Source: Balanoglossus misakiensis
Taxonomy: Eukaryota; Animalia; Hemichordata
Reading direction: 5' to 3'
Assembly (NCBI GenBank): GCA_040954595.2
Contig: CM082596.2
Span: 653,468 to 717,467 of the forward strand
Length of the DNA: 64,000 nucleotides
Shown: piece by piece, positions 10,936 to 64,000 of the stretch
Position numbering within the stretch: the first letter of the stretch is position 1
Layout: each line of letters opens with the position of its first letter
Program-made: the position numbers and the translations under genes
The notes under the pieces: generated by a model
What the model was told of the DNA's origin: nothing
Databases searched by the model: none
What the model saw: the letters and a program-made list of their open reading frames with translations, nothing else

Positions 10936-11427
10936 AATTACAAGATCTTATTTATAGCCCTATTGGAAGTCAGTGACCTGGCTTATATTTAAAGATCTTT
11001 GCAAAAATCTATCTACGGTTTGGCAGGTTCTAATTGCCACAGTGCATTTTCATTGTAAGGTTTCAGGCATAAAATTACATTTTTGCGTATGTGGGGTGAC
11101 ATTTTCATTCAAATTAATCCTTGACCCACAATATTTTTCATAATTTTAATTGCAAAACGATGAACAAAAGCATTAATCACTTAGAAAGAGCATGGTTGAC
11201 TATAATATATGGGATCACGTGAAAGGATTATGCAAAATTTTCAATGTGTTTTTAACAAACAGAGCTGCGACGGTCATATGAGGTCACTGCCTTGGTCTGG
11301 TTTGTACATAATGCAATGAGGTTAATTATACAGTATGTAAATGAATGGGGTGATAGAAAAGGTTCAGTGAGGGCAGGTCATGTCAGGGACGCCATGAGCC
11401 TCAAGGACATATGTTGTGAAAACTAAT

Positions 11428-14815
<3,388 letters not shown>

Positions 14816-17800
14816 CATTATTGAAGGACCCCACACTTTAAATATTTCAAAAGAGACTGTCACACAATTGATCATTTCATGACTTAATGATGCTGTAAAC
14901 ATTCAAGCAGACATGGACACATCCAGACGAGGAAAGACAGACATTTATTGTCGTGATGGTGTGATATTTCACTCACACGAGCGAACATATGAGATAATGC
15001 TGGTACTTCAAAGATATAATAAACACCAGAATCGTAATCAAGCATAGCGTGCCATACCTTATACAGCAAAAACGTAAACACCAGACTGTTATATTAAGAC
15101 CTCAATGATAAAATAAAGTATTTTGGGGTAGATGATGGTTGCAACGCACATGAGTTTTTCAACTTCAAGTGTACACTTACAAAAAGGAAAATAAAAAAAA
15201 TTGTAATTTCTATGGAACCAGTGTGACCAGGCTTTGTAACTGAGCTAGATGGTAATACAGAGTCAAAGCAAGACCCTAAGCAGGCAAAACATACCGGTAT
15301 ATTATGATCAGACACCTCACTCAAATATGCAAAAATGGCACATATCATTACTGTAAGTGACACTTAAAACTGGTGAATGTATGCCTAGCTAATTTTCTTG
15401 AGCAATAAATATTAATTTTTGATGCTTCTTATTCATGTAAATCCAATAAACAGGATAATGAGCTTTAAGATAATTAGCCATCAACAAATGGAATAACAAA
15501 GCCGCTTAGTGGCCTTTACATGCGATAATTATGTTTCCACTGTTGAGCACAATTAGACAAATTGATTGAGGAGAAAACGCCAATTTCCTTGAAACTAAAA
15601 AAAGGTAATCTGATCAGAGCTCGATGTAAGATGCAAATCAGCTAAATTATGACGGAATGACATTAGAATAATTTCAACGACATGTATTACGGTGACATAG
15701 AGACCTCAACAGTCAAGCCTCGTCGAGATTGCAAAGTATGAAGTGTTCTCCGTAGTTATGGATGAGCTCTACTTTATCGAAAGGCAAACTCTTTGAAGAA
15801 TACAGGTAAGTGAAGAAATAGGACAGCCTTCACAGCTAATTCAAACGTTTTGACAGACGGCTAAAAACCTGGGTTTGCTACAGAGAGACTGCAGCAGAAG
15901 ATGAGAACTATGGGACATGTTCGTTGATACGGTGGAGTTCTGTTCATACTGGTTAATATGATCGGTGTTACTGACAGAAAGGTGTATCATTTAAGGTTAC
16001 GCAAAAGTATTGTCAAGGATCGGACAACGAAGCATTTATTGATGGTCTCATTAAACAAAGTCTGTGTAATTTACCGTACTTCCCTTGAAGACTTTTCACC
16101 AAGACACAGCTTACTACAGATTAAAGCTAACGCAAGCAAGCTAGCGAGACTATATTCAAATAATTGTATGGTAGATTTGAAGATGATGTATCCAAAATGA
16201 CACGATCTGTTACTCAAATGTTAAATGACAGCATTTCTGGCTTTGGCTCACAACTGTGATTTTGTGGGTTTATTAGCTTCCATCTTCCCTTGATAGTGGT
16301 ACACATTTCGTTAAATTTGGTTTGTTAGCTGGAATATTTTAAAGGCTAGCGTAATGACAACTTTGTGGATTAATTTCTGAGGATTCAAGTTGAATTCCCT
16401 CCCGTTGCTGATCATAACACCAGCAATTTAATAAACATGTATCTGGCTTTAATCAAGGTGTGTTATTTATTGCCTAAAAACAGCATTTTATGCGAAAACT
16501 GGGAAATAAGACGCAGCTGGAATTACAACTAAACATGCATGGAATTATGGTTTAATTACTAAACTTACTGATTAAGGCTGCACAATATTAAAGTTGAAGC
16601 ATTTTGCATTGTTTCTTCTAAAGTACGTATTAATATTTAAGAAGTATTCATTAAGTCGCAGGTGTCCCTGAAGCATGAAATTAGTAGATGCCAGTTATAT
16701 CATTCATTCTGTCAATTGTTCACAATGACTCAATGGGACAATGACTGAGAAATGTCAATCAATTTTACCATCACTTTCTTGATAATTTAGCTGGCTAAAT
16801 TGATACTCTTATGACAATGAGTTGTCAACCTTTTACCCAGAATGCACTTATTATAAGTAATAAGTCGCTCTTATTAAAGGCCTTACTCAACAGTGGGCCA
16901 AATCTTTTGTTTCCAATAAACAGTAAACACAAAAGCTTTCTTGCGTGCCTCCATTGTACAGCCCTGGGATCAAGAAAACGGCCTTTAAATAATGTTGCGA
17001 AAAAGCATGTTAACACTGCTGGTATACGTGTCTATGATTAGGTAGCAAACAAATAAATTCTGCTGGTTGTTATGACGATACTACACTGGTGCGTGAAGTT
17101 TATTCTCACGACCTTAAATAGGTTTTGCTACCTACTGGTGAGTGATAGAAATATGTAGTCTACAGAATGTCAAGATGGCGAATTATGGTAGTTCAGAACC
17201 TAAATTAATGTTAGGTAAGACTGAATTTTTTGTAGCAGAAACATCTGTAGCAAATTTCAACAAATTTGGTGATTTCAGTTGAAGTATGTCTGTAATAACA
17301 ATTTAAGATTATCCTAATATGCAAATGGAGGAAATTGCATATGACACGCATTGAACCATCATAATGTTTAAAGAATGATATACTGGTATGTTGTAAGTGT
17401 TTACCATACCAACAAACTGGCAGACAGACAGGTAGGCAGACAGACAGACAACAGTACAGCTGTTAGTGCACGGGGCTAAAATGACTTGTGAACAAACTAA
17501 GTTAGTACATGGCACAGCTGGTCTTCACTTGGGAAATTTAAGCCTGATTAATCACAGACATTTGATAGTCATTTTACAACAGCACATTTGGTCATTATTT
17601 ACCCATTTTCTTTGCTATATAGTTGTGATGCAGCAAATAGCAAAGTCACCAAATGGGGTTACAATAAGACTCGGATGAGTATATTTAGACATGTCAATTC
17701 AAATGCTTTTACTGGTGGTTAATAAACAGATGTATAGGTGCGACACATATGTACAAGAGAACACTGGAAATAGAAAGCCATACTCAAGCTTTATACCTGC

Positions 17801-17898: not shown

Positions 17899-18184
17899 AT
17901 GGGTGACAAAAACACATGGATATCGATGCATGACTTCAATGGCAAAGTCAACAGGTAAGTCAGTTTCTGTACATTGGATTTGAGATTTTCTAAATGCCAC
18001 AAAGAGACAAGATCAGTTGGAGAATACCTTCTGTACATAAAAATGAAATGAAAATACTCTATGTCATCAATTTTTCGAAAGTGATCAATCCCTTCATCAC
18101 TTCGTCAGTGGGTGGTATCACTTATTTGATCTGTTGCCTTTGGAGTTATGGAATGTCTCACTGACAGATTCATGGGTTCATAGG

Positions 18185-18238
<54 letters not shown>

Positions 18239-21200
18239 CAGTGGCTGATAGTGAAGAATTTTTTCATACATTTTTAGGACAGATAAGACCGAACAGTTTG
18301 CTCAAGACAAAACCTTGCGTGAAAGTGATGAAAATGTAGCGAATAGAGAACGTACAACGTATATTGGTATCATTAAGGGGTTTGGTTTGGAGACCACTGC
18401 CCATGGTATTCCGAGAATCGCTGGTGCGAAGTCAACAATCGGCCGATTAATCTGGTGTGTGTTGTTCCTGGCTGCCGCTGGTGCATTCTTGCGACAGCTC
18501 ATAATTTTAGTGGATCTTTACGTGCAGCGTCCTGTGACAGTACATATTGCAGTCGTGTCAAAGTCCTCTCTGGACTTTCCTGCCATTACTGTATGCAACA
18601 CGAACAGACTTAGAAGTTCTGCTGTTCACAACAGTATCCACAAGGAACTAACCACGGCAGTTGAAGGAACAGAGATATTGCCATACTATGGTGAGTTCAT
18701 CCTATATCTTACTTAGCCCATTATTATACTGTCATAACTTCATAATGTACATAAAAATCCACCCATGCCTATGTAAACACTCATCAGATATTTGAATAAA
18801 AGCAATATGCAGCAAATCACATTTTCCTTTTAAAAGTAAATGCAAACATGTTGACAGCTTGATGGGTATTATTAGCAGAATCCCCTGTGCTTTTATGTCG
18901 TGGGAAATTCGTAGCTTTATAACTGCAATCTCTGTACATGGCACAAGACAGCTTGACAACCAGCTTTGTAATCATTAATTTTCACAGGCAATTTACGCTA
19001 CGAAATTTAATTGTGCTGATTAAAATTTCATGAGGAAGACATCAACAGAAGATCAACTTGGAATTTCCATTAAAACTTAATTACTTTCACATCACAATTA
19101 TTCTCACCCTATCTAATAACTACAAGATATTGCCGGAGATTATTATATTGAAAGGGGGTGACCTCGGTAATTTCTAACAAATGATAAAAATGACTGTTCC
19201 AGTTGAAAGTAATGAAATACGCAGGCTTAATATAATACTATTGTTGCATCTTTAATACAATTTTGTGAACATTTGAACTTTCAGTCTGGTATTACTTGTT
19301 CATTATTATTTGTGAAATTTCATATTGCACTGTTACAAATGTTGTCTGCAGATTAACCATGACATATTCACAAATGATTGATATTATCAATATCCATATG
19401 CATGTGTTTGCCGTTGTTCTAAATAAGTAAACATGAATCGGTAGATAATACTTGTACAGAAAATTTGAAGTCAACTTACTTTCATAGGGTGTTGTGTTCA
19501 ATTTTCTAATCACTTGATAGTCTTTGGGCAACATACACATGACAATAACGTTCTTAAAGACATGAAACCCTAGAGCATGATCACAATATCTTTCATTTCC
19601 TTGTAATCGCAGCGCCATGTCTAGATGGTGATTTCATATGCAGTAACGGTATAACATGTATAAAGTCGTACCTAGTTTGTGATGGAGCTGTTCAATGCCA
19701 AGATGGGAGTGATGAAGAACACTGTCAATATGGTAGGTGAACTGTTTATTAGGGCCATAGTCAGAAGTTATCATTTCAATTTACACCCAAAAGTAAGTTT
19801 AAGCTTATACGTCTTTTCTTTTGCCATTTAATAATCTAGCTGAATGCGCGCATGCACAGTTCAAGTGCCAGAGTGGAAGTCCTTTTGGTTTGTGCCTTGA
19901 GGAGCATAAGATATGCGATGGAACCGATGACTGCTATGACGGAGCTGATGAAAATTCATGTGGTACCTTATCTTGCTACTTTTAGACATTTCAAAATGGC
20001 TTTGTGCAAATATCAATAATTTCATGCTTAATACACACAAGGAAACATTTTTCAAAGAGTGGCATTTACATATTTATATTACTAGAATATTAAGTGTGAC
20101 GTTATCTGATGAATGGGTCACAGTTTTCTGAGGATTTTTATCTTGAGCTTTCTGAAGCATTAAAACGAGTCAAATTTTTTCAAGATGTGGAATCTCACTA
20201 CATTTTTGATGTTGGGTTCACCATCCTCATTTTCACAGTTTGCAGCTCACTTGAATTTGAATGTAAATCTGGCGGGAAATATGGCCATTGTATACCACTG
20301 GAGAATCTGTGTGATGGATACAAACATTGCAACAATGGTGAAGATGAGACAATTGAAAGCTGTGGTGAGTCACCTTGCTTTTTCATTTGTGCGATCCATC
20401 ATCAAATTTGTCAAAAGTGCATGAATGTTTCAATAGGGAAATATAGTGTATTATCAGTACATATTTGACATGCGAAAGTGTAACACTCTTTCCATTCCAA
20501 CAGTCAAGATTTATATCCTCGCTTAATGTAGGTTCTGGAGTCTTTTGAAACCAATTCATTTTATTTTCAGCTAATGACCATGGTTTTGTTTGTGATGGGA
20601 CCAGGCGTATTCCTACAAGTTGGCTCTGTGACAATATTCCTGACTGTTTGGACCTAAATGATGAGATAAAATGCACATCCTATGGTAGGATAAGACAATT
20701 TTTCTTATCTATATCATGTAAAAGACCAATGAGCGTCATAAGTTCTTGCCATGTAAAATTTGGAAAGATCAGACAGGTTTTTGATCACACATCTGCATTT
20801 ATCCTTTACAGAGACCTGCATGTCAGGACTTTTTACCTGCACGAACAAAAACTGTGTTTTGATGAACTCATTGTGCGATTTTGTCAACGATTGTGGAGAT
20901 TGGAGTGACGAGGAAAATTGTACATATGGTAAGTTAATTATTATGACCATCATTGACCCTTCTCTACATATTCATGTTTATCGTTTATACAATAACATGC
21001 TTATACTCTACACCTATATTTGACCTTCTCGATGCAAGTTCCATGTCCAGACACATCAAGCAGATGTCCGAATGGCAAATGTGTAAACAGTTTAGAAGAG
21101 TGTGATATTTACATGGGCTGTGGTGATGATGTTGCCGCAAGCAAATGCAATCAAAGCAGTGAGTATCAGAAAGTGTCCTTAACATTAGGTAGAATGCGCC

Positions 21201-24200
21201 TTGAAAATCAACGTCCTAAACTTTTTCTCATATTTTGTTCAAGGCAACTTTAGATTATTCCCTCTTAAAAATATCGTTATTGAAATTTTAAATTTACTAA
21301 CTTTAACTATTACTAACATTTGAAACTCCTTCAATGTGAAATCAATGTAGCTCCATGTCCTGGTCGACTGGTCCGTTGTGAAGATGGCAGATGTGTCACT
21401 GCGGAGAGCAACAGCTGTGGTGATGATATTGATTATATTGGCAAGTAACACATGTTGTAGCAATATGACAAAGGTTCAACTCCCTAAAGCATCATAAATG
21501 GTTCATTATTTAACTAGTTTATGAACACACGCCATGTGCACAGTCAACATCAATTACTATCATAAATTGAATACATCATGTCTGATGTGCATGTGTGTGT
21601 ATTCAGAGGGGAAACTCAGTACAGACTATTTTACATGCATCTGTTGTTGCAGAAGTGATGGCTTATTGCTTTTTGATTTCAATTGTAGAATCTTTATCAA
21701 TGCCATACCCGGAGAGCGAGTTTCAGAAAATATATGGTCATGTGTTAATGGCGGTGCCAAGAAGAGTATTGATCAACACCATGGAAGAAGAATGTTTGAT
21801 GGCATGTGTGAACGAGACTGATTTCATCTGTCGTGCTGTCAACACATTACCAGAAAATGTTTGTGAGCTTTTGGAAGAAAGCAACTCGTTATTGACTAAT
21901 TCGTTAATGGTGGCAAGTGATTCTGTGTACTATGAATATAGGAAAGGTAAAGAACTTTTCATTTGTGTAACAAAGTCATGAAATACACTGTCTTAAGGTA
22001 AAAGGGTCAATGGGTGTGTGTTAAAGGTAAACTCATTTTTTTCCAGCATCGATTTTCTATTGATTACACAATTTTGCATCTCTCTGTGAAGATCACACAT
22101 GTAATGCAATTGTTTTTAACAGCCAATCATCCATTCAACGCTGTCACTTCACACCATGGTTACGCTCTCCATGGATACACAGAGAAGAAAATCTTAAACA
22201 TCGATGAACAGGAATGCATTCTTGCATGTCTTACATCACCTGGTTTCCTTTGCCGATCTGTCGACTACTTCAAGGATGCTAAAATATGTTACGTGAATGT
22301 GGAGAATGCTTGGAGTGCGGGCGTTAGTCTTTTGAAAGATGGGCTATTCAACCACCATGAAATTCGTGACGGTGAGACCAAGTTCGTTTCATGTCCAAAT
22401 GACATTCTTCTTGATTGAGTCTTTATGTACAACACAAACCTGGTTGCACCAACAGATGTTAAGCTTTAATTTAAAAATACCCTCCATTTTATATTACGAT
22501 AAGTTTAAAATGTGACTCTCCCTCATGGTCAGGTGTGTAAAATTTGTCCACCCTCCTGGATCTCTCCAGCTGACCCTCGCATCTTTTATGTTGCCAATCC
22601 ATTCCATTCTCTCAACAGAAATTTATCCGTTTAACCAGTTCAAGGAATACGCAGGTTTTATGACATCAGTGATTGATGGGAAGAGAATAACCTCTCAAAC
22701 AATCCAGCAGTGTCTTTCCAAATGCATGATTGAACCAACTTTCGACTGTGTGGCTGTTGATTGGTCCACAAGTGGACTCTGTCTACTACTGGACAAATCC
22801 TTGCAATCACCAGATGTGCAGCTTATACCCAATGCTGAATTTGTCCATTATGAGGTCATAGACGGTAAGCTTCAAATTCCTCATAATGACAGTATTTCTC
22901 TGCAGATTTGCATCATCTATTTCACGTGCATCAATTAAGAGATTCTCAAAAAGTGCAGTGGTCTCATTTTCGAATTTCTGTGGTACATTCAGGTGTAAAT
23001 AAATGCAAAGCAAATCCTTTCTTTTTTATAATGCAGCATTTCCTCGAAATTACTTCATCAAGTCTACAGGGCGTGCTCTTACATCATACAATGACCATAT
23101 TATTCGCCGTGTTAGCCTGTCAGAGTGCTTGCGTTTTTGCCTGGAGGGACCAAAATTTGTCTGTCACTCGGCTGATTATTCAAAATATGCCAATTGTTTC
23201 ATGAGTACAGAAACTCCTGAAACTACTGAAACAGGGCTCGGGTTTTACAAGGGTACAAACTATTACCAGAGTAAAAAGGGTGAGTGTAGCTTCGTATTGT
23301 GTACACCCAATATTGTTGTTTGACATTATCAATTGTCTCAGTTCACAAGCCTAATATTCGCTACTTCAGCGATACTGGTTCGTTGACGGACATGAACTTG
23401 TACAGCAATCAATTTGAATTCCATTGTATCATTGAAGTAAGCTCAATAGGAATGCCTTGCTGTTGATTTATCTGTTTGCTTTGATACTTTCTGTATAGCT
23501 GTTTGCATAGAAGGTGACTTTGCCTGTGATCATGGATGGCAGTGTATCAAGGCTTCTCTGCACTGTGATGGAATACGCCATTGTGTAGATGGAAGCGATG
23601 AAAAACAATGTCAAGGTAGTCAGGTTGAATTTATTAGTTTAGTTTTATTTGTAGAAAGTTGTTAACCATGTGTAACATTTCACAAAACTTCATTATGCAT
23701 TTCTTCAAGATACTGAAAATGATGAAATAAATATGGAAGAGTAAGTAAACATGTTTTGCAGAATCGACTCCCAAAATTCACTTCATTCAATTCAATATTG
23801 TGAATTCAACCATATATCACTTTACATGGAAAAAGCCTAAGTTCAATGTTTTAAACCATAATTTCACTATAGGCTATTCTTGTACGGAGGAAGAATTTCT
23901 ATGCAATAAGGGATCATTTCATGAAGAGATTTGTATTTCAAAAGAAAGTGTCTGTGATGGCTACCGTGACTGTCTTGATGGTTCAGATGAAACCAGAGAA
24001 CAATGTCGTGAGTATAATGAGTTTTACTGATGGAAACACAGTTTGTCGATAAGGCGACTAGAAAACCATGTAAATCTTATGTAGGCTCACATACTTGTGT
24101 GTCACCATACACCTGGACAACTGTCCCAAAACAGTTAACACATTACCAGTGATTAAGAATGCTATCTTTCAAAGATAGAAACTATTATTGCCATTCGATA

Positions 24201-27200
24201 ATAAAATTGAGAACATTGTTCTTTTGTGAAATAAGAAGTTAAAAATATTCTGATGTGATCATCTCCAGAAATTTGTCGAGGATTCTTGTGTGATGATACT
24301 CTCTGCATCGAAGACTCCAAGGTTTGTGATCACGTTGTCCACTGCACGGACGGGACCGATGAAAAATCCTGTCTGTATCGTAAGTACCTATCCATTTGTC
24401 TTGGAGACTTCTGATCAAAAGAATGTAGCACTTCAATTCAGTACTCAGCCAATTACTTTGGCATGTATAATATACATTTTGTTTTTATGTATTTTACCCA
24501 GCTGTATGTACCAACAGAGAACACAAATGTCCAAACAAAATGTGTATTCCATTGGAAAAAGTGTGTGACGGTGAAAACGACTGCTATGATTGGACAGAGG
24601 AATGGAATTGCAAATATCGTAAGTTTTTCAATAGGATCACTGCATGGTTCAGTAACCTATTACAATTGACTTAGATTTGTGAAACTTTTGAAACTGTTGC
24701 GTTGATATTTCTAAATATCTCAGCTAACTGCAACAAAGTCTTTTAACGTGACTTTATATTAACACATCAAAATATCTTGTCTTAAAACAACATAGAACAG
24801 GTAAAGGAATGCCTCGTGTTCTGTACACATTGAACTGTGAATTCCACCTGAATGTTTTCTATATCACAGGTGGGGAATGCTACATGTTGGCCAATGCCTA
24901 TGATTATCGTGGAAATGTTAGCAAAACAGTGAGTGGACGAGACTGTCAGAAATGGACTTCTGACTCTCCACACATGCATGACAGAGACCCAGAGGATTAC
25001 CCAGGGGCCGGGATTGGTGATCATAACTTCTGTAGAAATCCCGACAACGAGGCTGGGATTTGGTGTTTCACCACTGACCCGGATGTTCGATGGGAATACT
25101 GTGAAGCGGGAATAAGGCAACAAAAATGTGATGGCGGTTGGTATCCAATCCTGTTCTTAACACATACATTCCTTCATTTGTTTTGTAAAACAGTTGAACA
25201 CTAGCTTATAGAAAGTGGCCAAGCAAATACAATGATATAAACTGTATGAAGCTGTCATTTTCCTAAGTTTTTATATTTTGTTATAATGAATGACTTTTCT
25301 CTAATTCTTGCTGCATATTTAGATATCCGGAAGTGTGACACTGAAAATGAATTTTCCTGTCGAAATCAGCAATGTATTGCTGAACATTTCCTCTGTGATG
25401 GCAGAAATCACTGTGGTGATTGGAGTGATGAATGGGATTGTCAATACAGTAAGTATACCTGCATCTTGGGCAAAAGTAGCATATCTTGGGTTGTACAAAG
25501 TTCATAGCAAGGAGGAAAGATAACAAAAGTGGACAAGATTGCAAAGTTCATGTGTTTAGTACAATTAGCATGCCAGGTCCACTCTAGGTCAACTATGGAG
25601 TGTCTTAGACCATTCCATGTCTCATCAGTAACTCTGTATCTCTTTTCAGGGGGAGAATGCTACATGTTGCAGAGTGGTGCAGATTATCGGGGAAATACAA
25701 GTGTTACAAGAAGTGGCAACGATTGTCAAAAGTGGTCTGAACAAACACCCCATCGACACAACTATTCACCTGAGATGGTCAAAGGTCAAGGTCTAGGTGA
25801 TCACAACTACTGTAGAAATCCTGGCCAAGCCCAAGGTCAATCTTCACCATGGTGCTATACTACAAACCCCAACGTTACCTGGGAACACTGCAGTCTCCCT
25901 GAACCTCTTGATACATGCTCCCAAAGTAAGTCATTATCTCCATGTACAAAGATACAACATCTATCTATCTATCTACCTATCTATCTATCAAAATCTGTCT
26001 GTCTCACTCAACATTCCCTCTTGTATGTACGGTAATTGTGCTCTCATCTTTACGGTTGTACATCATTTCAGACACCATTTGTGCCAAGGATGAATTCACT
26101 TGTCACAGTGGTCAATGCATCATTGCCAAACAACGCTGCGACAGGAACCAGAATTGTGCTGATGGTAGTGATGAAGAGAATTGTGCATTTTACGTCGATG
26201 AAATGGGTAAGCAAAGTTTGGTGGTCCATGAAAGTTGAAGTGACCAACAGATTTGTGCTTTTTACTCAACGCTATGCAGGATTAATTAATAAACAACAGG
26301 GTTGAAACCAGTCATTTAAATTCCATTTTTTCTCTTGTCATCCATACAGGTAGATGTCCTTCCTTTACATTCACTTGTAGGGATGGCACGTGTATCAATC
26401 CCTACTTCAAATGTAATGTACGAGTAGACTGTCCTGATGGCTCAGATGAAATCAACTGTCTACCGCCTGGTAAGAGAGTGATTCCACAGTACACTAATGT
26501 CATCCTTCATACTTATATCAAAGGATAAATAAAACAGAGAGAGGTAAACAAGACAGGAGCTGAGAGATTATTTTATGGGGATTTGAGGTTAGGATTTCAT
26601 ATATTGGTCTGATATAAGATGCACTTGTGTGTACCACTCTTATCATCTTGAAGTGTTAACTTTCTGACAGGTTTTGGTTCAGGATGTTATCGAGGCCGTG
26701 GAGAAGAGTACCGAGGACTTGTCAACGTTACAGAGAGTGGGAAAGCTTGTGTCAAATGGAAAGATTCAAAACACAAATACATTCCTGAAAAATTACCCGA
26801 AGCAGGTAACCAGCATAAAGCAGTAACACAATGAGTTTGTTCAAGTTATGAAGTATAACAAAATACACAGCAAATGTTGTGTGAATATTTGTCTGTGTTT
26901 TTGAAACTGAATTTCAAATACAGAAGCAAGCTCAATTTTCACCAATTACAATGTATACCACTATTATTAGGCTTCATTGTCAGGCCGAAAGAATACCACA
27001 AACTTTACAATTGCTTCTATTGGCACAAAATAAATCTATCTACATGGGACTGCATGTGATCAAATGCATGGAAGTGAAATGTGAGTAGTGGTCTAAATTT
27101 ATCAGTTAACCGAATAACTATATCTGCTGGTATTCAATGTACTAGAACCTTTTTGTGCCAGCATAGATATTTCGGCCTTTCCTGAATCACTGATTAAATT

Positions 27201-30200
27201 CTACTGATACGCCTACTTCCTATCGTTAACAACAAACATTCTCCTTTGAAATCATGTCAATATAAATTTCAGGTTTAGAAGGAAATCAATGTCGGAATCC
27301 AAGTGCAGTTGCTTCAATGACCAAACCGTGGTGTTACCATGCGGACAACTCCACAGATAGAATAGGTCGTGAATTTTGCAACATTTCTCTTTGTGACAGA
27401 GGTGAGTTTATAAATTCTGTTGTAATCTTGTAGATTTCATGGTGTGGACATGCCAGGAAACAGATGTTCCGGAAAGTAATTTCAGAGACTGCAGAAATAA
27501 ATAGCAAAATGAAAGTATTGCTGGCTCTCCGTAAAAGTCAACTGCATGATGACGCTCTGCTGGTAATAAAGTCCAAAAATAGCTAGTAATGACCTCAATC
27601 GAACTAGGCTCTCTTAAACATAATTATATCTGACCTGAATTGTTTTTAGAAATGGAACAACCAATAAATATGTCAATTAGGTGGTACTAGTCACAGTCAT
27701 GTCACTCGGGTGACAAAGTGGAGCAAATGCTGAATGATACCCCTAATTTGTCACACATGCAAGCTAGTATCTGTTTTGACTTTTTAAAAATGCCATGACC
27801 TAGTGACAAGTGTCAGTGGCAACATATATATCAACTTTTTTGCAGTACCTCAAGTAAACGTTGATGAATTCATACCCACGGAAAAGAAACTACCAAGGAA
27901 CTGGTACAAGAAGTATTCAGAGTTCTTGACTGATCATCTCAAGGAGGATTTTGAAGCTTATTATCGAGATCCTGGTTTCCAACGTGTCAAGAGTGAGATA
28001 CCACCTGACTGGTACGGGTTCATGACATTCAGTTCCACTCCAGACTTCAGCGATTTACAGAATATATTGAAATTATCAAGAGACGAGATAAAACAGTTGG
28101 GACATCAAGCTGAAGACTTCATACTACAGTGTACCTTTGACCAGGGAAAGTGCAGTTACAAGTGAGTATACACAAGATTCAAAATTTTGTCAACAATGGC
28201 TGCTTACTCATCAGCATCTAACTCATAGAGCATCTTTGTGTTTTTCTATCCTAGGGATTTCCACCTGTTTGCAAGCAGTCAATACGGCAACTGCTTCACT
28301 TTCAACCATGGTTTGAACGGCAGCAAAGTGAAAGAGTCGACCAGAGCTGGTGCAAACAACGGTAAGGCGCCATCACACGGCCACCATAGCTGTTTTTTTC
28401 ATCTTCACAATCGTCTCACTAAGTTTTCAAAACTACAAATGGATGGCCACAACTCAAATTATCTTGTTATATGTCAACAGGGCTAAAGTTAACATTGTTT
28501 ACAGAGCAAAGTGAATACATTAGTTTATTTGGACAATCATCGGGAGTCAAGGTTTCGATTCATCGTCATGACGCTGAACCTTTCCCAGAAGATGATAGTG
28601 TCACTGTCCAGACTGGAAGTGAGACATCAATAGCTTTGAAAGAGGTATGAACTAAATGCATGTCAACACATTTGTCTGATTGTTGCCACCCCTACCCTGA
28701 GCACCACAGTGACCACCACCACCACCACCGTCATCATCATTATAAGAAGACTACTGCAAAATTCTAACAATAAATCTTACCCTAATTTTTTTATCTTTTC
28801 AGGGACTAATTAAAAGACTGACACCACCCCATGGAGAGTGCTCACAAGGCCCATCTGCCGACTTTAATATGAGTGCAAAAGAAGAATGGGCTTATAGTCA
28901 AATAGTAAGACAGCATGAAATTATGTTCACAGGGTTGCATTTTTTAGAAAGTGAAATAGCCTTTTACAGATGATCTTGTTTAACTGTGCACAAACACTTC
29001 CTTCCTGGACAATAATCAAATTCCCCGAAATGTAATGTCCACAGTCCCTGTGTGTACCGGCCGTCATCCCTGTTCTAACTTCTAAATGCCAGACTGTAAT
29101 AATTTAACATTTTGTTTTGTGGATTCTATCACCAGGCATGCCAACATAGTTGTACAAAACGTCACATGCTGAAGATGTGTGAATGCATTGATACGTATAA
29201 CGATGACGGACCAAGATGTATGATACAAAACACCACACAAGGTAAATCGTTTTGTCATCATGTGTCAATTATCATTGCAATGAGTGAAAAGTCACTCCAC
29301 TCACTCAATTCTAGAGAAACTTTACACTCTGACTCTGCTGTTTCTGTTTCCAGAGATCTGTCGTCAACTTATGTACTTCCTTCATCAAAGAAACGGACTA
29401 CCATGTGACTGCAGGATACCTTGCAAGTGAGTTTAAACTTCTGCAGTCCTTGTCGTTTTTTACAATATATGAACAGCCCACAAGTGTCAAGTGTCTGCAT
29501 ATCAATATTTGAACACTTTGCAACATCTTGTGAATGCCAAAGTACCAGCAGAAAAGCCTCCTTTGTAGGGATAGGCATGCTAGCGCCGCCAATGGCCAAA
29601 ATCACAGCTTGGAGCAGACTTGTACAGTTGGGGAATAAAGGATGATGACGGTTGCACTTTTAAAACAGATTCACATTAAGTAAATAATTCTGGGTTGATT
29701 TTCCACAGTGAAACTTGGTATGGTAAGACTATTTCACAGTCATATTGGCCGTCAACAAAATACTTGGTGAGTGGTAGTGTTGTTGTTGTTGTGTGTAAAT
29801 AGTTAGAGAAACAATGACAGACAGTCAGAGCTAATGACAGAGACAGAAAAAGACAGCATGTTCTATATTCAACAAGCACCAGTAGTAACACATCTTGCAC
29901 ATGAAAACCATGGTCTAGAATTGATAAGCTATGTAAGAATGATATAATGCAAATTTGTGGAAAGCACACATAAGTATTGAGAGTCTGGTAAAATTTAATG
30001 ACAGTAGAGTCTGGGTGAAACATTAAAAGCTGAAAATAGTCTTCGTCTGGAGATGTATAAAATGACAATGCTATTATGTGCGAACTCTACATACATTATC
30101 ACACAAGGTCAGTTGCCACCAAAGTCCTGTGCAAATGACATCTCCATTTCATACAACAGACATTGCCTATTTTAGGGCAGAGAGCCACAAATTTTCTCAA

Positions 30201-31010
30201 TAGTTTTAAAGGTAGATTTGCTTCTCTAAAGAGAAAGAGATATTATCTGAAGGACTTTTTATTTCTTGTTATGAAGGGATCTTTACTCAGAGTGTTGCAT
30301 TCACTCAACGATAAGACCAAAGATATAAGAAACAGCAATGATGCACGGTAAGATATTCAAACTTTTATCACTCATATTTCATTGATAAAGTATTAAAAAG
30401 GCATATCTTCCAGTTTCAGATTGTAGTGTGATTGAAGCGTTACTTCCCAATAACTGTCTGTGAACTTGACTTTTCATGCCAGAAGAACACCAAGTACATG
30501 TATGTGTAAAACAACAGTTTGTGTTGCTACTCAATGAAATGTTGCATATTAATATTAAACCCTTCTTCAGGAGGAATCTGGTTCGGTTAGAAGTGTATTT
30601 TGAAGAATTAAATTATGAAAAGGTGGAAGAGACACCAGCATACCTGGTGAGTAATTGTTATTTACAGGAAGCTTCTGAGAATACAGAAGTCAGACTATAA
30701 TTATAGAGGTGTTGAACCACACTCTTTTTTTCACACATGCACCAGAGTTTCTCGTTTATGTATTGCACACCATCCATCCATAGGCAGACAACACACACAC
30801 AATCTGTTATGTTTTCATGATATTCTACATTTTGTTATTTTTCAGCTTGAAAATCTTATTGGTGATATTGGTGGATCACTCGGACTATATATTGGCCTGT
30901 CTCTCATCACCGTTGCTGAATTCATTGAATTTTTGTGTGATCTTTTCCGACTCTGCTTTGCCCGATTATCTCAGCCGTCTCGGAGACATGTACCTGCATC
31001 CATATTGTGA
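17899..31010 (+). CDS. Giant DEG/ENaC (amiloride-sensitive Na+ channel family) subunit with LDLa/PAN/kringle insert, about 1,700 aa
   Basis: N-terminal channel exon 18278-18690 encodes [11 protein letters not shown]1 and [10 protein letters not shown]. It is followed by 22 module exons (19613-27401). C-terminal channel exons are 27846-28161, 28255-28361 (YGNCFTFN), 28481-28644, 28803-28904, 29136-29241, 29354-29426 (Cys-rich thumb), 29709-29766, 30277-30347, 30571-30646 ([10 protein letters not shown]) and 30846-31010 ([27 protein letters not shown]2, stop). The first coding exon is uncertain (ATG at 15762, 17175 or 17899). Confidence 0.88.
18185..18237 (+). repeat. (TTGA)n microsatellite
   Basis: About 13 perfect TTGA units in an intron, just upstream of the channel TM1 exon. 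Confidence 0.95.
18278..18690 (+). CDS. DEG/ENaC N-terminal exon: HG gating motif, TM1, post-TM1 FPAxTxCN
   Basis: Translation ...[79 protein letters not shown]...; phase-1 donor G|GTGAGT at 18690. Confidence 0.93.
19613..21440 (+). CDS. Channel insert block 1: seven LDL-receptor class A (LDLa) exons, three degenerate
   Basis: Exons 19613-19732, 19840-19962, 20239-20364, 20571-20684, 20812-20928, 21039-21158 and 21351-21440. Example: [36 protein letters not shown]. All are phase 1-1. Confidence 0.88.
21689..23279 (+). CDS. Channel insert block 2: four PAN/apple domain exons
   Basis: Exons 21689-21946, 22123-22371, 22619-22864 and 23037-23279, about 81-86 aa each. They share a C-x3-C...F.C.(A/S)(V/A)(D/N)...C pattern and end in a YE/HE/YQ-type motif, e.g. 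[31 protein letters not shown]. Confidence 0.85.
23499..24618 (+). CDS. Channel insert block 3: four LDLa exons
   Basis: Exons 23499-23615, 23873-24007, 24269-24379 and 24502-24618, each with six Cys and a C-x-D-G-(S/T)-D-E-type acidic motif. Confidence 0.9.
24870..27401 (+). CDS. Channel insert block 4: kringle-LDLa-kringle-LDLa-LDLa-kringle
   Basis: Kringle 1 at 24870-25136 ([33 protein letters not shown]), LDLa 25323-25448, kringle 2 at 25650-25925, LDLa 26072-26206, LDLa 26350-26469, and kringle 3 split over 26671-26805 and 27273-27401. Confidence 0.9.
25960..25989 (+). repeat. (CTAT)n microsatellite
   Basis: ctatctatctatctacctatctatctatc, intronic. Confidence 0.85.
27846..31010 (+). 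CDS. DEG/ENaC C-terminal half: palm, beta-ball, thumb and TM2
   Basis: [46 protein letters not shown], Cys-rich thumb, [28 protein letters not shown] (GxS selectivity filter). Ten exons in frame. Confidence 0.93.
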
Positions 31011-35742: not shown

Positions 35743-36624
35743 TTATCCGAACATTAAACCCCATCCATAGTCATCACGTCCTCGTTTGTTGTCATTTCCG
35801 TTCCTTGATCTTAACCTTGCACGACCTTTTGACCTTTTGTCGAGAACGGTGCGCTTTATGCTTTCACGAAGCACATCCATTGGATCCTGGTTTTCATCGG
35901 TCATTCCTTGTTCTAAGTCTGTTTCGTAATCATCGAAGTCTCTGTCGGCAATTTCCGCAACAAATGGGTCTTCTTCACCGCTGAGTCGTTTCCCAAACAT
36001 CGGACCCCATCCATACCCTTCTTCGAGTCCACGCTTTTCGTTAGTTTCTGCTATGTTGGAATCGTCGAATGTAACCGTGTGTTGTGGACTCCTCTTGCCG
36101 AACATCATACCCCAACCGTAATCGCGCGAGGGATCTCTCTCAGATATCAAGCCCCCTCTTTTACCAAACATCATTCCCCAACCATAGTCATTGCCTCGTT
36201 TCGCACTTGCTTCTTTCGGCACAACTTTTTCGTCCTTAAACGCTTTGTCAGAATGGAGGGATTTATCGACATTGTTCCAACCATATGAAGATTCATCCAC
36301 CAGACCTCTCTTGCCAAACAGCATTCCCCATCCGTAATCACCCTTCCCTGGGTCTTTTTTGCTCTGGGCCCCTTGACCCTGCCGTTGATTGCCGCCTCTT
36401 TTGCCGAACATCATTCCCCAACCGTAATCGTTTCCCCGCTTGGCCTCCAGTGGCCCCTTCTCTTCATCATCCGCCTGTTGCCCGGCAACCCAATTCACTT
36501 CCGGCGCCAGTATACTCTCTCCAACCTCAGCCTTTTTGCTGAAAGTTGTCGTTGGCAACCATGCCGATAAAGTCACATCTAAGTAAATAGATAGGAAGAA
36601 CAAAATTGCCAAATGTCTCACCAT
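35743..36624 (-). CDS. Gastrin/cholecystokinin/sulfakinin-type neuropeptide precursor with six (D/G)YGWGxxF-amide peptides
   Basis: 293-aa single coding exon with a signal peptide (MVRHLAILFFLSIYLDVTLSA). Peptides flanked by KR/KK/R, each with a C-terminal Gly amide donor: GNDYGWGMMF (x2), DPGKGDYGWGMLF, DPSRDYGWGMMF, GLEEGYGWGPMF, GRDDYGWGLMF. The DY-G-x-G-x-x-F-amide pattern matches the CCK/sulfakinin family. A splice acceptor (ttttcattttttgcag) lies about 20 nt upstream of the ATG. Confidence 0.9.
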   Translation of the reverse strand: MVRHLAILFFLSIYLDVTLSAWLPTTTFSKKAEVGESILAPEVNWVAGQQADDEEKGPLEAKRGNDYGWGMMFGKRGGNQRQGQGAQSKKDPGKGDYGWGMLFGKRGLVDESSYGWNNVDKSLHSDKAFKDEKVVPKEASAKRGNDYGWGMMFGKRGGLISERDPSRDYGWGMMFGKRSPQHTVTFDDSNIAETNEKRGLEEGYGWGPMFGKRLSGEEDPFVAEIADRDFDDYETDLEQGMTDENQDPMDVLRESIKRTVLDKRSKGRARLRSRNGNDNKRGRDDYGWGLMFG

Positions 36625-37837
36625 TTCCCGTTCTCTGTGATAATCTGCAAAAAATGAAAAATGTTAGGCGATTAGACAATGACCAACACATATATGCAGA
36701 ACCTAAAACCAGAGCTAGACATTGAAAGTTTGCAGTGATGAAACGTGCATATTTGGACGTTATGATATCTTGTTTTATAGTTCTTATCACGCAGACTGAA
36801 TCCAGTACACTGAATAGCCTTGTTTTCAAATGCCAAACTTTACATTAATACATGAGACATAAGCGCCCTGAAATCTTTTGTCGGAAAAATCTCCTTTCAA
36901 AGTGTGTGATCAATTAAAGTGTTCACAAGGCGTACTGTTCAACGAGAAGCACGAACTGTCCATGTGATCATTGCATCATATTCGCTCCATACTTTCGCTT
37001 GGATTGGTTCAAACCACGTGACATTAACGAGGCATGACACACGATAGTTTTGCCTTCGCTCTGATGACCTGTTTACTTTGTGCTGTGTTGACTGCCTGTA
37101 AAAACTCTTTTGTCTAGCTGTTAATGAAACTCAATGCTGTTTATTACAAGTAGCGAAAGAATATCTTGGCAATGTCAAGATTTGCAAAAAATAACACCTC
37201 TCATCATTGATATTATGTACTTTTCAAAGACCAGCGAAAAGTTCGTTGAAGGTTGCTTGGCTGTAACAGCTGAGCAGATGCTAGTCATCCTTGGCGATAG
37301 AATTCCAATGTTTGCCCTAATTGGTATTATGCATCGAAGACAGCGTCCAACTTCGTATGGCGCATCGTTCCAATCAATGGAAGATCTTGTTACGAAGAGG
37401 GGTTCGTTAAAAAAATAACGCTGAGAAAAAGTGTTTGACAACACAACAACATCACGAAATATTCACTTCAGATAAATGTCTCTACAACTTGACTTTAACT
37501 TCAACCGAATTAATCCCAAGAGAAACGTTTTTATACAGGCATCACCCAAGATTCGTTAACATCACTACCTTAAAAATTTGCAGAAAGACCACCAGACGTG
37601 CAGTCAACGTGTGATGAGAAAAACGAAAACTTATCTATCGTTAATTGTCATTTAACCGCAAGCCGGTTTCCATTGCAGATTAAACGAATGACAAACTTGT
37701 TTCATAATCTGTTACATCGCTGGGGGAGGTATCTGATATCTTGGCATCAGCCAAAGGAGGCAATTTCTGATGATCGTAAAAGCCTTCTTGCGGCTTAGGT
37801 CAGAAAAGCAGCGCATCGCTCAGGTCATTCGCACGAA

Positions 37838-38050
37838 CCAAGGGAATGGGTGTTTGGTACAGTTTTTTAAGGGAATGGGTGGTTGGCACAGTTTTTTTAA
37901 GGGAATGGGTGAGTAGCACAATTTTTAAGGGAATGGGTGAGTAGCACATTTTTTTAAGGGAATGGGTGAGTAGCACAATTTTTAAGGGAATGGGTGAGTA
38001 GCACAATTTTTAAGGGAATGGGTGAGTAGCACAATTTTTAAGGGAATGGA
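37838..38050 (+). repeat. About 29-bp minisatellite (AAGGGAATGGGTGAGTAGCACAATTTTT), about 7 copies
   Basis: Direct tandem copies; the first two are divergent and the later ones near-identical. Confidence 0.92.
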
Positions 38051-38055
38051 TGGAT

Positions 38056-38742
38056 GGTGAGGAAAATGTAAACGTGTTGGTAGCGCTAGAAACATAGCCG
38101 GACACCCCAGATTGAACATAGAACAATCTCTTCCGCAAAGGACTCTGGGATCAATGGCGGCCATTCCGTGGCTCGATCCATGGACCGTGTTTTTCGGGTT
38201 GTCCGAGAGTTTTTACAACTTTAAAGTTTCATTTTACACTCGCTATTTCGTTAGATGGGGTGGGTTACAATATAAAGTCGATAGTCGTACATTTTTAACA
38301 AATAAACAAAAGTGAGGACAATGTAAACGTGTTGGGGGCGCTAGTAGCATAGCCGGACACCCCCATTTTGAATAGAACAATCTCTTCCGCAAAGGACTCT
38401 GGGATCAATGGCGGCCATTCCGTGGCCCGATCGATGGACCGTGTTTATCGGGTTGTCCGAGAGTTTTCACAACTTTAAAGTTTCATTTTACACTCGCTAT
38501 TTCGTTAGATGGGGTGGGTTACAATATAAAGTCGATAGTCGTACATTTTTAACAAATAAACAAAAGTGAGGAAAATGTAAACGTGTTGGGGGCGCTAGTA
38601 ACATAGCCGGACACCCCCATTTTGAATAGAACAATCTCTTCCGCAAAGGACTCTGGGTTCAATGGCGGCCATTCCGTGGCCCGATCCATGGACCGTGTTT
38701 TTCGGGTTGTCCGAGAGTTTTTACAACTTTAAAGTTTCATTT
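38056..38742 (+). repeat. About 254-bp tandem repeat, about 2.7 copies
   Basis: The unit starting gtgagga(a/c)aatgtaaacgtgttgg recurs at about 38057, 38312 and 38566. The copies are near-identical and the third is truncated after aaagtttcattt. Confidence 0.92.
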
Positions 38743-53603: not shown

Positions 53604-56600
53604 TCGACTTTGCGGATTTTCGAAATTTGGTCATTTTTTGAAAAAATCATGGGTTATAGCTCAGGAAAATCGTCAAAAATCGAGGATTTTTCGACTTTGC
53701 GGATTTTCGAAATTTGGTCATTTTTTGAAAAAATCATGGGTTATAGCTCAGGAAAATCGTCAAAAATCGAGGATTTTTCGACGTTGCGGATTTTCGAAAT
53801 TTGGTCATTTTTTGAAAAAATCATGGGTTATAGCTCAGGAAAATCGTCAAAAATCGAGGATTTTTCGACTTTGCGGATTTTCGAAATTTGGTCATTTTTT
53901 GAAAAAATCATGGGTTATAGCTCAGGAAAATCGTCAAAAATCGAGGATTTTTCGACTTTGGGGTTTTTCGAAATTTGGTCATTTTTTGAAAAAATCATGG
54001 GTTATAGCTCAGGAAAATCGTCAAAAATCGAGGATTTTTCGACTTTGGGGATTTTCGAAATTTGGTGATTTTTTGAAAAAATCATGGGTTATAGCTCAGG
54101 AAAATCGTCAAAAATCGAGGATTTTTCGACTTTGGGGATTTTCGAAATTTGGTGATTTTTTGAAAAAATCATGGGTTATAGCTCAGGAAAATCGTCAAAA
54201 ATCGAGGATTTTTCGACTTTGGGGATTTTCGAAATTTGGTGATTTTTTGAAAAAATCATGGGTTATAGCTCAGGAAAATCGTCAAAAATCGAGGATTTTT
54301 CGACTTTGGGGATTTTCGAAATTTGGTGATTTTTTGAAAAAATCATGGGTTATAGCTCAGGAAAATCGTCAAAAATCGAGGATTTTTCGACTTTGGGGAT
54401 TTTCGAAATTTGGTGATTTTTTGAAAAAATCATGGGTTATAGCTCAGGAAAATCGTCAAAAATCGAGGATTTTTCGACTTTGGGGATTTTCGAAATTTGG
54501 TGATTTTTTGAAAAAATCATGGGTTATAGCTCAGGAAAATCGTCAAAAATCGAGGATTTTTCGACTTTGGGGATTTTCGAAATTTGGTGATCTTTTGAAA
54601 AAGTCATGGGTTATAGCTCAGGAAAATCGTCAAAAATCGAGGATTTTTCGACTTTGGGGATTTTCGAAATTTGGTGATCTTTTGAAAAAGTCATGGGTTA
54701 TAGCTCAGGAAAATCGTCAAAAATCGAGGATTTTTCGACTTTGGGGATTTTCGAAATTTGGTGATTTTTTTGAAAAAATCATGGGTTATAGCTCAGGAAA
54801 ATCGTCAAAAATCGAGGATTTTTCGACTTTGGGGATTTTCGAAATTTGGTGATTTTTTTGAAAAAGTCATGGGTTATAGCTCAGGAAAATCGTCAAAAAT
54901 CGATGATTTTTCGACTTTGGGGATTTTCGAAATTTGGTGATTTTTTGAAAAAGTCATGGGTTATAGCTCAGGAAAATCGTCAAAAATCGAGGATTTTTCG
55001 ACTTTGGGGATTTTCGAAATTTGGTGATTTTTGTGAAAAAATCATGGGTTATAGCTCAGGAAAATCGTCAAAAATCGAGGATTTTTCGACTTTGGGGATT
55101 TTCGAAATTTGGTGATTTTTGTGAAAAAATCATGGGTTATAGCTCAGGAAAATCGTCAAAAATCGATGATTTTTCGACTTTGGGGATTTTCGAAATTTGG
55201 TGATTTTTTGAAAAAATCATGGGTTATAGCTCAGGAAAATCGTCAAAAATCGATGATTTTTCGACTTTGGGGATTTTCGAAATTTGGTGATTTTTTGAAA
55301 AAATCATGGGTTATAGCTCAGGAAAATCGTCAAAAATCGATGATTTTTCGACTTTGGGGATTTTCGAAATTTGGTGATTTTTTGAAAAAATCATGGGTTA
55401 TAGCTCAGGAAAATCGTCAAAAATCGATGATTTTTCGACTTTGGGGATTTTCGAAATTTGGTGATTTTTTGGAAAAAATCATGGGTTATAGCTCAGGAAA
55501 ATCGTCAAAAATCGATGATTTTTCGACTTTGGGGATTTTCGAAATTTGGTGATTTTTTGGAAAAAATCATGGGTTATAGCTCAGGAAAATCGTCAAAAAT
55601 CGATGATTTTTCGACTTTGGGGATTTTCGAAATTTGGTGATTTTTTGAAAAAATCATGGGTTATAGCTCAGGAAAATCGTCAAAAATCGATGATTTTTCG
55701 ACTTTGGGGATTTTCGAAATTTGGTGATTTTTTGAAAAAATCATGGGTTATAGCTCAGGAAAATCGTCAAAAATCGATGATTTTTCGACTTTGGGGATTT
55801 TCGAAATTTGGTGATTTTTTGGAAAAAATCATGGGTTATAGCTCAGGAAAATCGTCAAAAATCGATGATTTTTCGACTTTGGGGATTTTCGAAATTTGGT
55901 GATTTTTTGAAAAAATCATGGGTTATAGCTCAGGAAAATCGTCAAAAATCGATGATTTTTCGACTTTGGGGATTTTCGAAATTTGGTGATTTTTTGAAAA
56001 AATCATGGGTTATAGCTCAGGAAAATCGTCAAAAATCGATGATTTTTCGACTTTGGGGATTTTCGAAATTTGGTGATTTTTTGAAAAAATCATGGGTTAT
56101 AGCTCAGGAAAATCGTCAAAAATCGATGATTTTTCGACTTTGGGGATTTTCGAAATTTGGTGATTTTTTGGAAAAAATCATGGGTTATAGCTCAGGAAAA
56201 TCGTCAAAAATCGATGATTTTTCGACTTTGGGGATTTTCGAAATTTGGTGATTTTTTGGAAAAAATCATGGGTTATAGCTCAGGAAAATCGTCAAAAATC
56301 GATGATTTTTCGACTTTGGGGATTTTCGAAATTTGGTGATTTTTTGAAAAAATCATGGGTTATAGCTCAGGAAAATCGTCAAAAATCGATGATTTTTCGA
56401 CTTTGGGGATTTTCGAAATTTGGTGATTTTTTTGAAAAAATCATGGGTTATAGCTCAGGAAAATCGTCAAAAATCGATGATTTTTCGACTTTGGGGATTT
56501 TCGAAATTTGGTGATTTTTTTGAAAAAATCATGGGTTATAGCTCAGGAAAATCGTCAAAAATCGATGATTTTTCGACTTTGGGGATTTTCGAAATTTGGT

Positions 56601-62600: not shown

Positions 62601-64000
62601 CAGGAAAATCGTCAAAAATCGATGATTTTTCGACTTTGGGATTTTCGAAATTTGGTGATTTTTTTGAAAAAATCATGGGTTATAGCTCAGGAAAATCGTC
62701 AAAAAGTCGATGATTTTTCGACTTTGGGGATTTTCGAAATTTGGTGATTTTTTTGAAAAAATCATGGGTTATAGCTCAGGAAAATCGTCAAAAATCGATG
62801 ATTTTTCGACTTTGGGGATTTTCGAAATTTGGTGATTTTTTGAAAAAATCATGGGTTATAGCTCAGGAAAATCGTCAAAAATCGATGATTTTTCGACTTT
62901 GGGGATTTTCGAAATTTGGTGATTTTTTTGAAAAAATCATGGGTTATAGCTCAGGAAAATCGTCAAAAATCGATGATTTTTCGACTTTGGGGATTTTCGA
63001 AATTTGGTGATTTTTTGAAAAAATCATGGGTTATAGCTCAGGAAAATCGTCAAAAATCGATGATTTTTCGACTTTGGGGATTTTCGAAATTTGGTGATTT
63101 TTTTGAAAAAATCATGGGTTATAGCTCAGGAAAATCGTCAAAAATCGATGATTTTTCGACTTTGGGGATTTTCGAAATTTGGTGATTTTTTTGAAAAAAT
63201 CATGGGTTATAGCTCAGGAAAATCGTCAAAAATCGATGATTTTTCGACTTTGGGGATTTTCGAAATTTGGTGATTTTTTTGAAAAAATCATGGGTTATAG
63301 CTCAGGAAAATCGTCAAAAATCGATGATTTTTCGACTTTGGGGATTTTCGAAATTTGGTGATTTTTTTGAAAAATCATGGGTTATAGCTCAGGAAAATCG
63401 TCAAAAATCGATGATTTTTCGACTTTGGGGATTTTCGAAATTTGGTGATTTTTTTGGCAAAAATCGATGATTTTTCGACTTTGGGGATTTTCGAAATTTG
63501 GTGATTTTTTTGAAAAAATCATGGGTTATAGCTCAGGAAAATCGTCAAAAATCGATGATTTTTCGACTTTGGGGATTTTCGAAATTTGGTGATTTTTGTG
63601 AAAAAATCATGGGTTATAGCTCAGGAAAATCGTCAAAAATCGATGATTTTTCGACTTTGGGGATTTTCGAAATTTGGTGATTTTTGTGAAAAAATCATGG
63701 GTTATAGCTCAGGAAAATCGTCAAAAATCGATGATTTTTCGACTTTGGGGATTTTCGAAATTTGGTGATTTTTTGAAAAAGTCATGGGTTATAGCTCAGG
63801 AAAATCGTCAAAAATCGATGATTTTTCGACTTTGGGGATTTTCGAAATTTGGTGATTTTTGTGAAAAAGTCATGGGTTATAGCTCAGGAAAATCGTCAAA
63901 AATCGATGATTTTTCGACTTTGGGGATTTTCGAAATTTGGTGAATTTTTTTGAAAAAGTCATGGGTTATAGCTCAGGAAAATCGTCAAAAATCGATGATT
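53604..64000 (+). repeat. 87/88-bp satellite DNA array, about 118 copies, running off the window end
   Basis: Unit TCGACTTTGGGGATTTTCGAAATTTGGTGATTTTTT(T)GAAAAAATCATGGGTTA(T/C)AGCTCAGGAAAATCGTCAAAAATCGA(T/G)GATTTT, highly homogeneous. Confidence 0.98.

Follow-up and report, generated by a model that had tools for sequence, protein, structure and literature searches.

The stretch of DNA analysed here, referred to as the window, comprises 64,000 nucleotides (nt) of the acorn worm Balanoglossus misakiensis (contig CM082596.2, positions 653,468 to 717,467). On its forward strand lies a gene that likely encodes a DEG/ENaC sodium channel, judged from its sequence, with a long array of extracellular modules between the two channel halves. 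The gene was modelled from the sequence using scripts, which gave 34 coding exons between positions 17899 and 31010, encoding 1726 amino acids with no internal stops (Table 1). Pfam ASC was found above its cut-off on exons N1, C3 and C10, two transmembrane (TM) helices were present, and the pre-M1 HG motif and the G-x-S filter of TM2 were both intact. The insert is made up of 22 exons (i1 to i22, 19613 to 27401), each phase 1-1, 90–276 nt in length and a multiple of three, and its product of 1158 amino acids contains 114 cysteines and carries 14 LDLa-like, four PAN and three kringle modules. No second copy of the gene was found by tblastn within the window, and the gene's introns, searched for further exons, gave only unstructured cysteine-containing frames.

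A preliminary description of this stretch had reported that all 22 insert exons are symmetric, that the flanking channel donor (18690) and acceptor (27846) are likewise phase 1 and that the C-terminal channel introns are of mixed phase. These points hold in the stop-free model: the lengths it cited as examples are those of i1, i2, i3, i8, i9, i16 and i18, and the nine C-terminal introns have phases 2, 1, 0, 0, 1, 2, 0, 2 and 0. Per-exon Pfam searches placed LDLa above cut-off in 12 of the 14 LDLa-like exons, with i6 matching weakly and i7 not at all. Kringle 3 was found to be halved, i21 covering Pfam positions 1–31 and i22 positions 46–79; the two being halves of one kringle, 21 domains are carried on 22 exons. 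Phase-1 introns bound the modules on both sides throughout (22/22 exons, 21/21 domains), which supports the earlier proposal of an origin by class 1-1 exon shuffling. Exon i7 (21351–21440) most likely ends at a GC donor, the alternatives being a GT donor at 21419, also phase 1, and a GT at 21444 in phase 2. The naive chance of 22 symmetric exons is (1/3)^22 = 3e-11, a figure that makes the pattern look more surprising than it is, as such modules usually show class 1-1 symmetry and several exons resemble internal duplicates. Reciprocal best matches among the insert exons were obtained for i1/i12 and i15/i17, and 45 of 78 residues are common to kringles i16 and i18; by sequence, several insert exons look like internal copies. 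LDLa, kringle and PAN all belong to class 1-1, and phase symmetry by itself is textbook and ordinary for modules of this class. The predominance of class 1-1 among shuffled extracellular modules is described in PMC8001218.

To support the inferred junctions, exon C1 was used as a query and retrieved full-length proteins of Ptychodera flava, Glandiceps talaboti and Saccoglossus kowalevskii. The closest protein, P. flava XP_070570703.1, was identical at 1244 of 1710 aligned residues and aligned with zero offset at 22 of the 23 insert junctions; the junctions were accepted because annotated orthologs align at them. Pfam ASC matched the ortholog with an E-value of 2.6e-84. Identity to the closest P. 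flava protein was 50–87% for insert exons versus 67–91% for C-terminal channel exons, LDLa1 was 75–85% identical across four orthologs, and the most conserved motif spans the N1/i1 junction. Module order was identical in P. flava (two genes), G. talaboti and S. kowalevskii (two genes), lineages whose split dates back over 370 million years according to PMC4729200. With this order kept in three genera, the insert is likely a fixed antenna, probably for a ligand or the matrix, and not a freely spliced menu.

Several sources bear on the position of the insert in the channel fold. N1 residues 26–120 match human alpha-ENaC residues 53–147, and ortholog residue 1397 aligns with alpha-ENaC residue 276. 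An AlphaFold model of P0038, a relative with eight LDLa modules (pLDDT 76.5, pTM 0.63), placed the modules between the finger helices, with both channel halves at high confidence. Foldseek of this model returned FaNaC and ASIC (FaNaC1: E 1.7e-24, TMt 0.59, rmsd 12.6), so that in this relative the palm/thumb/finger fold is predicted to be kept despite the insert. In ENaC, according to Noreng et al. (PMC6197857), the GRIP domain lies between alpha1 and alpha2. From the alpha-ENaC matches, the P0038 model and this placement, we infer that the insert occupies the alpha1–alpha2 segment, the protease-gating GRIP site of ENaC. The correspondence with GRIP (PMC6197857) lends itself to another explanation, in which the array does not gate the pore and is instead a cleavable inhibitory pro-segment, as with the protease-removed GRIP of ENaC, or a tether for localisation or adhesion. 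In many module-less relatives this segment does hold a low-complexity spacer containing R-x-K/R-R sites, and such sites also occur there in sea-star members. The insert of the focal protein and those of both P. flava orthologs, however, contain no R-x-K/R-R; the focal gene has modules in place of an ENaC-type GRIP domain with furin sites, and 21 conserved modules in a set order would be superfluous in a segment that is simply removed. We regard this explanation as unlikely.

It had been proposed earlier that a single ancestral phase-1 intron in the finger region received the modules, with the suggestion that insert-less paralogs be checked for it. A scan of metagenome contigs with alignment A1 gave 80 loci, 39 motif exons of which were scored for donors; a scan with exon C1 found nothing. 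None of the 80 loci contained LDLa, kringle or PAN. Seven module-less genes share the focal exon layout (L068/L071 and L059/L079 counted once each), their splice sites being inferred from DNA and, for one, backed by an intron-free relative. In six of the seven (L005, L065, L066, L068, L076 and L078) the best donor 29–44 codons past the FPAVT-CN motif is phase 1, the focal donor lying 38 codons past it, and the proposed intron is supported to this extent. A phase-0 donor also occurs in L065 and L068 with a lower score and in L078 with an equal one, for which no phase-0 acceptor was found in L078. L005 best matches a Porites protein, and its phase-1 join agrees in register with the intron-free contig L001. 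The seventh gene, L059/L079, has no finger intron, and a second group (L040, L041, L054, L064 and L075) has a phase-2 intron ten codons past the motif. Intron 2 of human SCNN1A lies at c.416. In PMC10665068, c.505–c.598 falls inside exon 3 and c.684 is phase 0, with no phase-1 intron at the site. The landing intron seems to predate the modules but, because SCNN1A, L059/L079 and the phase-2 group differ, is not universal; the segment being hypervariable, exact homology of position is presumptive. In the finger intron region of L068 (3684–4030) there is also a Thr-rich, mucin-like open frame, possibly another exon at the same phase-1 site.

For the wider family, architectures were obtained from homology searches and Pfam and mapped with local profiles. 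Acorn-worm proteins carry LDLa-PAN-kringle, LDLa only, LDLa-CUB-TSP1, LDLa-ShK or LDLa-F5/8 between the channel halves, sea stars LDLa-kringle-SRCR, crinoids LDLa and amphioxus F5/8-Link-kringle. Trees of the C-terminal channel part were built from 85 of 127 rows, after 42 redundant isoforms and fused or fragmentary models had been dropped, and contained no vertebrate ENaC row. The 49 LDLa-bearing rows fell on one side of a branch (SH-aLRT 94, a quick method without bootstrap) that contained none of the 25 module-less rows. P0124, an LDLa-bearing long-branch fragment, grouped apart from this branch, as did a PAN-only Saccoglossus protein, and the nine amphioxus rows formed a branch of their own. 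On these trees, a single branch holds the LDLa channels from acorn worms, sea stars and crinoids, which carry differing sets of modules at the one site; deeper support being weak, repeated recruitment may have taken place. Both channel halves were present in 35 of 50 family rows, and in 31 of the 34 other genes the module best matched by the focal LDLa1 was the first, with P0088 and P0081 lacking the usual first LDLa type. The ESM Atlas returned only generic ASC clusters (0.78). Five hemichordate members (P0008, P0009, P0014, P0015 and P0031) carry EGF-like repeats, detected with our own profile, besides the finger insert, and four of the five carry FN3; P0031 has an additional hydrophobic helix N-terminal to the channel. 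As this EGF-repeat subgroup was seen in three genera, it possibly represents a three-TM form. P0036, P0073 and P0075 each contain two complete channels per chain and are probably fused tandem paralogs.

The preliminary description had also suggested that any subset of the insert, or all of it, could be skipped in frame, giving many ectodomain variants or a conventional channel of about 560 amino acids. The direct N1–C1 join is indeed in frame and free of stops, encodes 568 amino acids and can be aligned along module-less sea-urchin channels, as expected if the gene produced a conventional channel beside the long form. Against this, of 30 clusters listed, 24 belong to the LDLa family, and no insert-less isoform was found among their members; a search of proteins of 30–943 amino acids gave nothing above 57% identity to the channel half of the P. 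flava ortholog. The LDLa branch holds no module-less row, the most conserved motif crosses the N1/i1 junction, and all 35 complete family members have LDLa directly after the site. Skipping of the whole insert is therefore very unlikely, and that claim is not upheld. Two short ASC-only hemichordate models (P0087 and P0097) and P0007 were considered as insert-less forms and rejected, as they lack the N-terminal channel half.

Eight genes with several annotated isoforms were all compared; the mixed clusters P0084/P0127, P0092/P0130, P0035/P0068/P0069 and P0013/P0033, which combine different loci or annotation versions, were kept outside the pairwise comparison. Isoforms of two genes lacked one whole module, those of a third lacked 31 amino acids, and none lacked the insert. 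P. flava XP_070570507.1 is without exactly kringle 1 (89 amino acids, corresponding to exon i16), Patiria XP_038045203.1 without its second LDLa and Acanthaster XP_022079733.1 without 31 amino acids, and the other isoforms differ by 3–10 amino acids or at their ends. The older Saccoglossus model P0004 lacks LDLa4 relative to the newer P0030, which was counted as an annotation difference and not as an isoform. Combinatorial use, in which many skip combinations would diversify the ectodomains between tissues or stages, could draw on these annotated skips, on the fact that each subset is in frame and on the two weakest donors in the focal gene, i2 and i16, which belong to the two modules skipped in relatives. 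Each recorded event, however, removes a single unit, module order and number are unchanged over three genera, and insert introns, with a median of 201 nt, are about as short as those of the channel itself (199 nt). Were only one of i21 and i22 skipped, the remaining half-kringle would have unpaired cysteines. There is no Dscam-like array of near-duplicate alternative exons, the modules being divergent and present all together in annotated orthologs. Combinatorial splicing is weakly supported and, as a general account, quite improbable: the in-frame property stands, while the annotations of relatives show only single-module skips. Inclusion would be mostly constitutive with occasional loss of a single module, for which i2 and i16 are the best candidates.

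The vertebrate ENaC alpha, beta and gamma chains (SCNN1A/B/G) have the same two-TM ASC fold, are the best match of exon C3 and also carry extra sequence between alpha1 and alpha2; unlike the 1158-amino-acid array, GRIP is a short, protease-released beta segment. SCNN1A introns c.875, c.1360 and c.1439 (PMC10665068) have the phases of focal C1/C2, C5/C6 and C6/C7, whereas the insert site has no phase-1 counterpart. The class 1-1 mosaics LRP2/megalin, plasminogen and HGF contain the same module types and rank first among the PDB sequences matched by the insert. These proteins act as receptors or are secreted, whereas the focal modules are anchored at both ends in a channel ectodomain. Family proteins are present in RefSeq under names such as 'LRP2-like', a name which, for the ortholog, reflects the LDLa repeats alone. 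FaNaC and ASIC, the best structural matches of P0038, have no modular insert and respond to small ligands (peptide, proton). The ligand of FaNaC binds in its finger region. The modules of Caenorhabditis elegans EGAS are EGF, as opposed to LDLa, PAN and kringle, and are located N-terminally of the channel rather than within the finger. EGAS is the nearest described case of a DEG/ENaC channel with shuffled extracellular modules, its function being left unresolved in PMC10424705.

Taken together, the data favor, with a probability of about 0.62, a DEG/ENaC finger array that was shuffled and duplicated in an old phase-1 intron and is carried mainly by a full-length protein, where it would serve as an antenna whose binding is coupled to gating. 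Modules of the LDLa, kringle and PAN types bind proteins or glycans. They would have entered the old finger intron by exon shuffling with internal duplication, and one main full-length protein would carry the array; once a secreted protein or a component of the matrix is bound to it, the finger could move, so that the pore is opened or primed. Several observations weigh against this. Single-module skips are annotated (P0029 and P0048), and mean donor score is lower for the insert than for the channel (6.7 versus 7.5, p 0.047, by a crude consensus count); together with the weak i2 and i16 donors, this fits occasional single skips. Rare splice forms may be missed, since the isoforms are automated RefSeq models of other species. 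The landing intron is missing from L059/L079 and SCNN1A, and P0088 indicates that the LDLa1 type is not strictly required. Finally, EGAS channels gave no currents in oocytes, according to PMC10424705, so that module-bearing subunits may need partners.

No description of the LDLa-channel family was found in the literature searched, supplements and subscription journals being outside its scope, and neither 'LDL' nor 'kringle' appears in the main text of the DEG/ENaC phylogeny papers examined. The stimuli that gate DEG/ENaC channels are protons, peptides, proteases or force. More tentatively, and with rather less than even odds, the family may represent invertebrate-deuterostome receptor-channels not found described, in which the DEG/ENaC gating segment is a shuffling hotspot for LDLa, PAN, kringle, CUB, TSP1, SRCR, ShK, F5/8 and Link with more than one uptake, each paralog opens in response to its own secreted protein or matrix tether, and single-exon skips tune the antenna. 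Dozens of paralogs with differing protein-binding arrays at the gating segment would then be candidate protein- or matrix-gated channels, and exon shuffling would repeatedly have used an old phase-1 intron as its landing site within an ion channel. The clean removal or swap of the insert makes the idea testable in oocytes.

Table 1. Coding exons of the DEG/ENaC-type gene, with positions in the window
Exon	Position	Strand	Basis or remark
N0, probably the first coding exon (ATG), phase 0-2	17899..17954	+	weakest part of model, 27-44% identity to orthologs
N1, HG motif, TM1, palm, finger helix, phase 1 end	18278..18690	+	Pfam ASC E 3.9e-19
i1, LDLa, first module family-wide, 120 nt, 1-1	19613..19732	+	Pfam, family comparison
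i2, LDLa, 123 nt, weak donor	19840..19962	+	Pfam, donor score
i3, LDLa, 126 nt	20239..20364	+	Pfam
i4, LDLa, 4 Cys, 114 nt	20571..20684	+	Pfam
i5, LDLa, 117 nt	20812..20928	+	Pfam
i6, LDLa, degenerate, 120 nt	21039..21158	+	Pfam E 0.032, under cut-off; conserved in orthologs
i7, LDLa-like, truncated, 4 Cys, 90 nt, probable GC donor	21351..21440	+	no Pfam match
i8, PAN, 258 nt	21689..21946	+	Pfam
i9, PAN, 249 nt	22123..22371	+	Pfam
i10, PAN, 246 nt	22619..22864	+	Pfam
i11, PAN, 243 nt	23037..23279	+	Pfam
i12, LDLa, 117 nt, likely internal duplicate of i1	23499..23615	+	Pfam, exon comparison
i13, LDLa, 135 nt	23873..24007	+	Pfam
i14, LDLa, 111 nt	24269..24379	+	Pfam
i15, LDLa, 117 nt	24502..24618	+	Pfam
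i16, kringle 1, 267 nt, weak donor	24870..25136	+	Pfam; matching 89 aa absent from P. flava paralog isoform
i17, LDLa, 126 nt	25323..25448	+	Pfam
i18, kringle 2, 276 nt	25650..25925	+	Pfam
i19, LDLa, 135 nt	26072..26206	+	Pfam
i20, LDLa, 120 nt	26350..26469	+	Pfam
i21, kringle 3 first half, 135 nt	26671..26805	+	Pfam profile positions 1-31
i22, kringle 3 second half, 129 nt	27273..27401	+	Pfam profile positions 46-79
C1, remaining finger, phase 1-2	27846..28161	+	model, ortholog retrieval
C2, phase 2-1	28255..28361	+	model
C3, 164 nt, phase 1-0	28481..28644	+	matches human alpha-ENaC 329-380
C4, phase 0-0	28803..28904	+	model
C5, thumb, phase 0-1	29136..29241	+	model
C6, thumb, phase 1-2	29354..29426	+	model
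C7, phase 2-0	29709..29766	+	model
C8, knuckle region, phase 0-2	30277..30347	+	model
C9, phase 2-0	30571..30646	+	model
C10, TM2, G-x-S filter, stop	30846..31010	+	Pfam ASC, motif check

Other features were observed elsewhere in the window. Four single-exon open reading frames of 329–360 amino acids between 1261 and 10247, three on the reverse and one on the forward strand, show a hydrophobic pattern like that of seven-TM G protein-coupled receptors. Directly upstream of the channel, at about 11400–14880 on the forward strand, translations indicate a multi-exon carboxylesterase/cholinesterase-like gene. Tandem repeats of 28 bp (7.4 copies) and 254 bp (2.7 copies) occupy 37840–38742, and an 88-bp satellite fills 53604–64000, with about 112 copies in one array and more to the window end (98% matched, strong GC skew). 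On the reverse strand, an open reading frame at 35743–36663 begins like a signal peptide and contains six GWG-x-x-FG(KR) repeats, as in a neuropeptide precursor; these repeats may resemble CCK/sulfakinin-type peptides.

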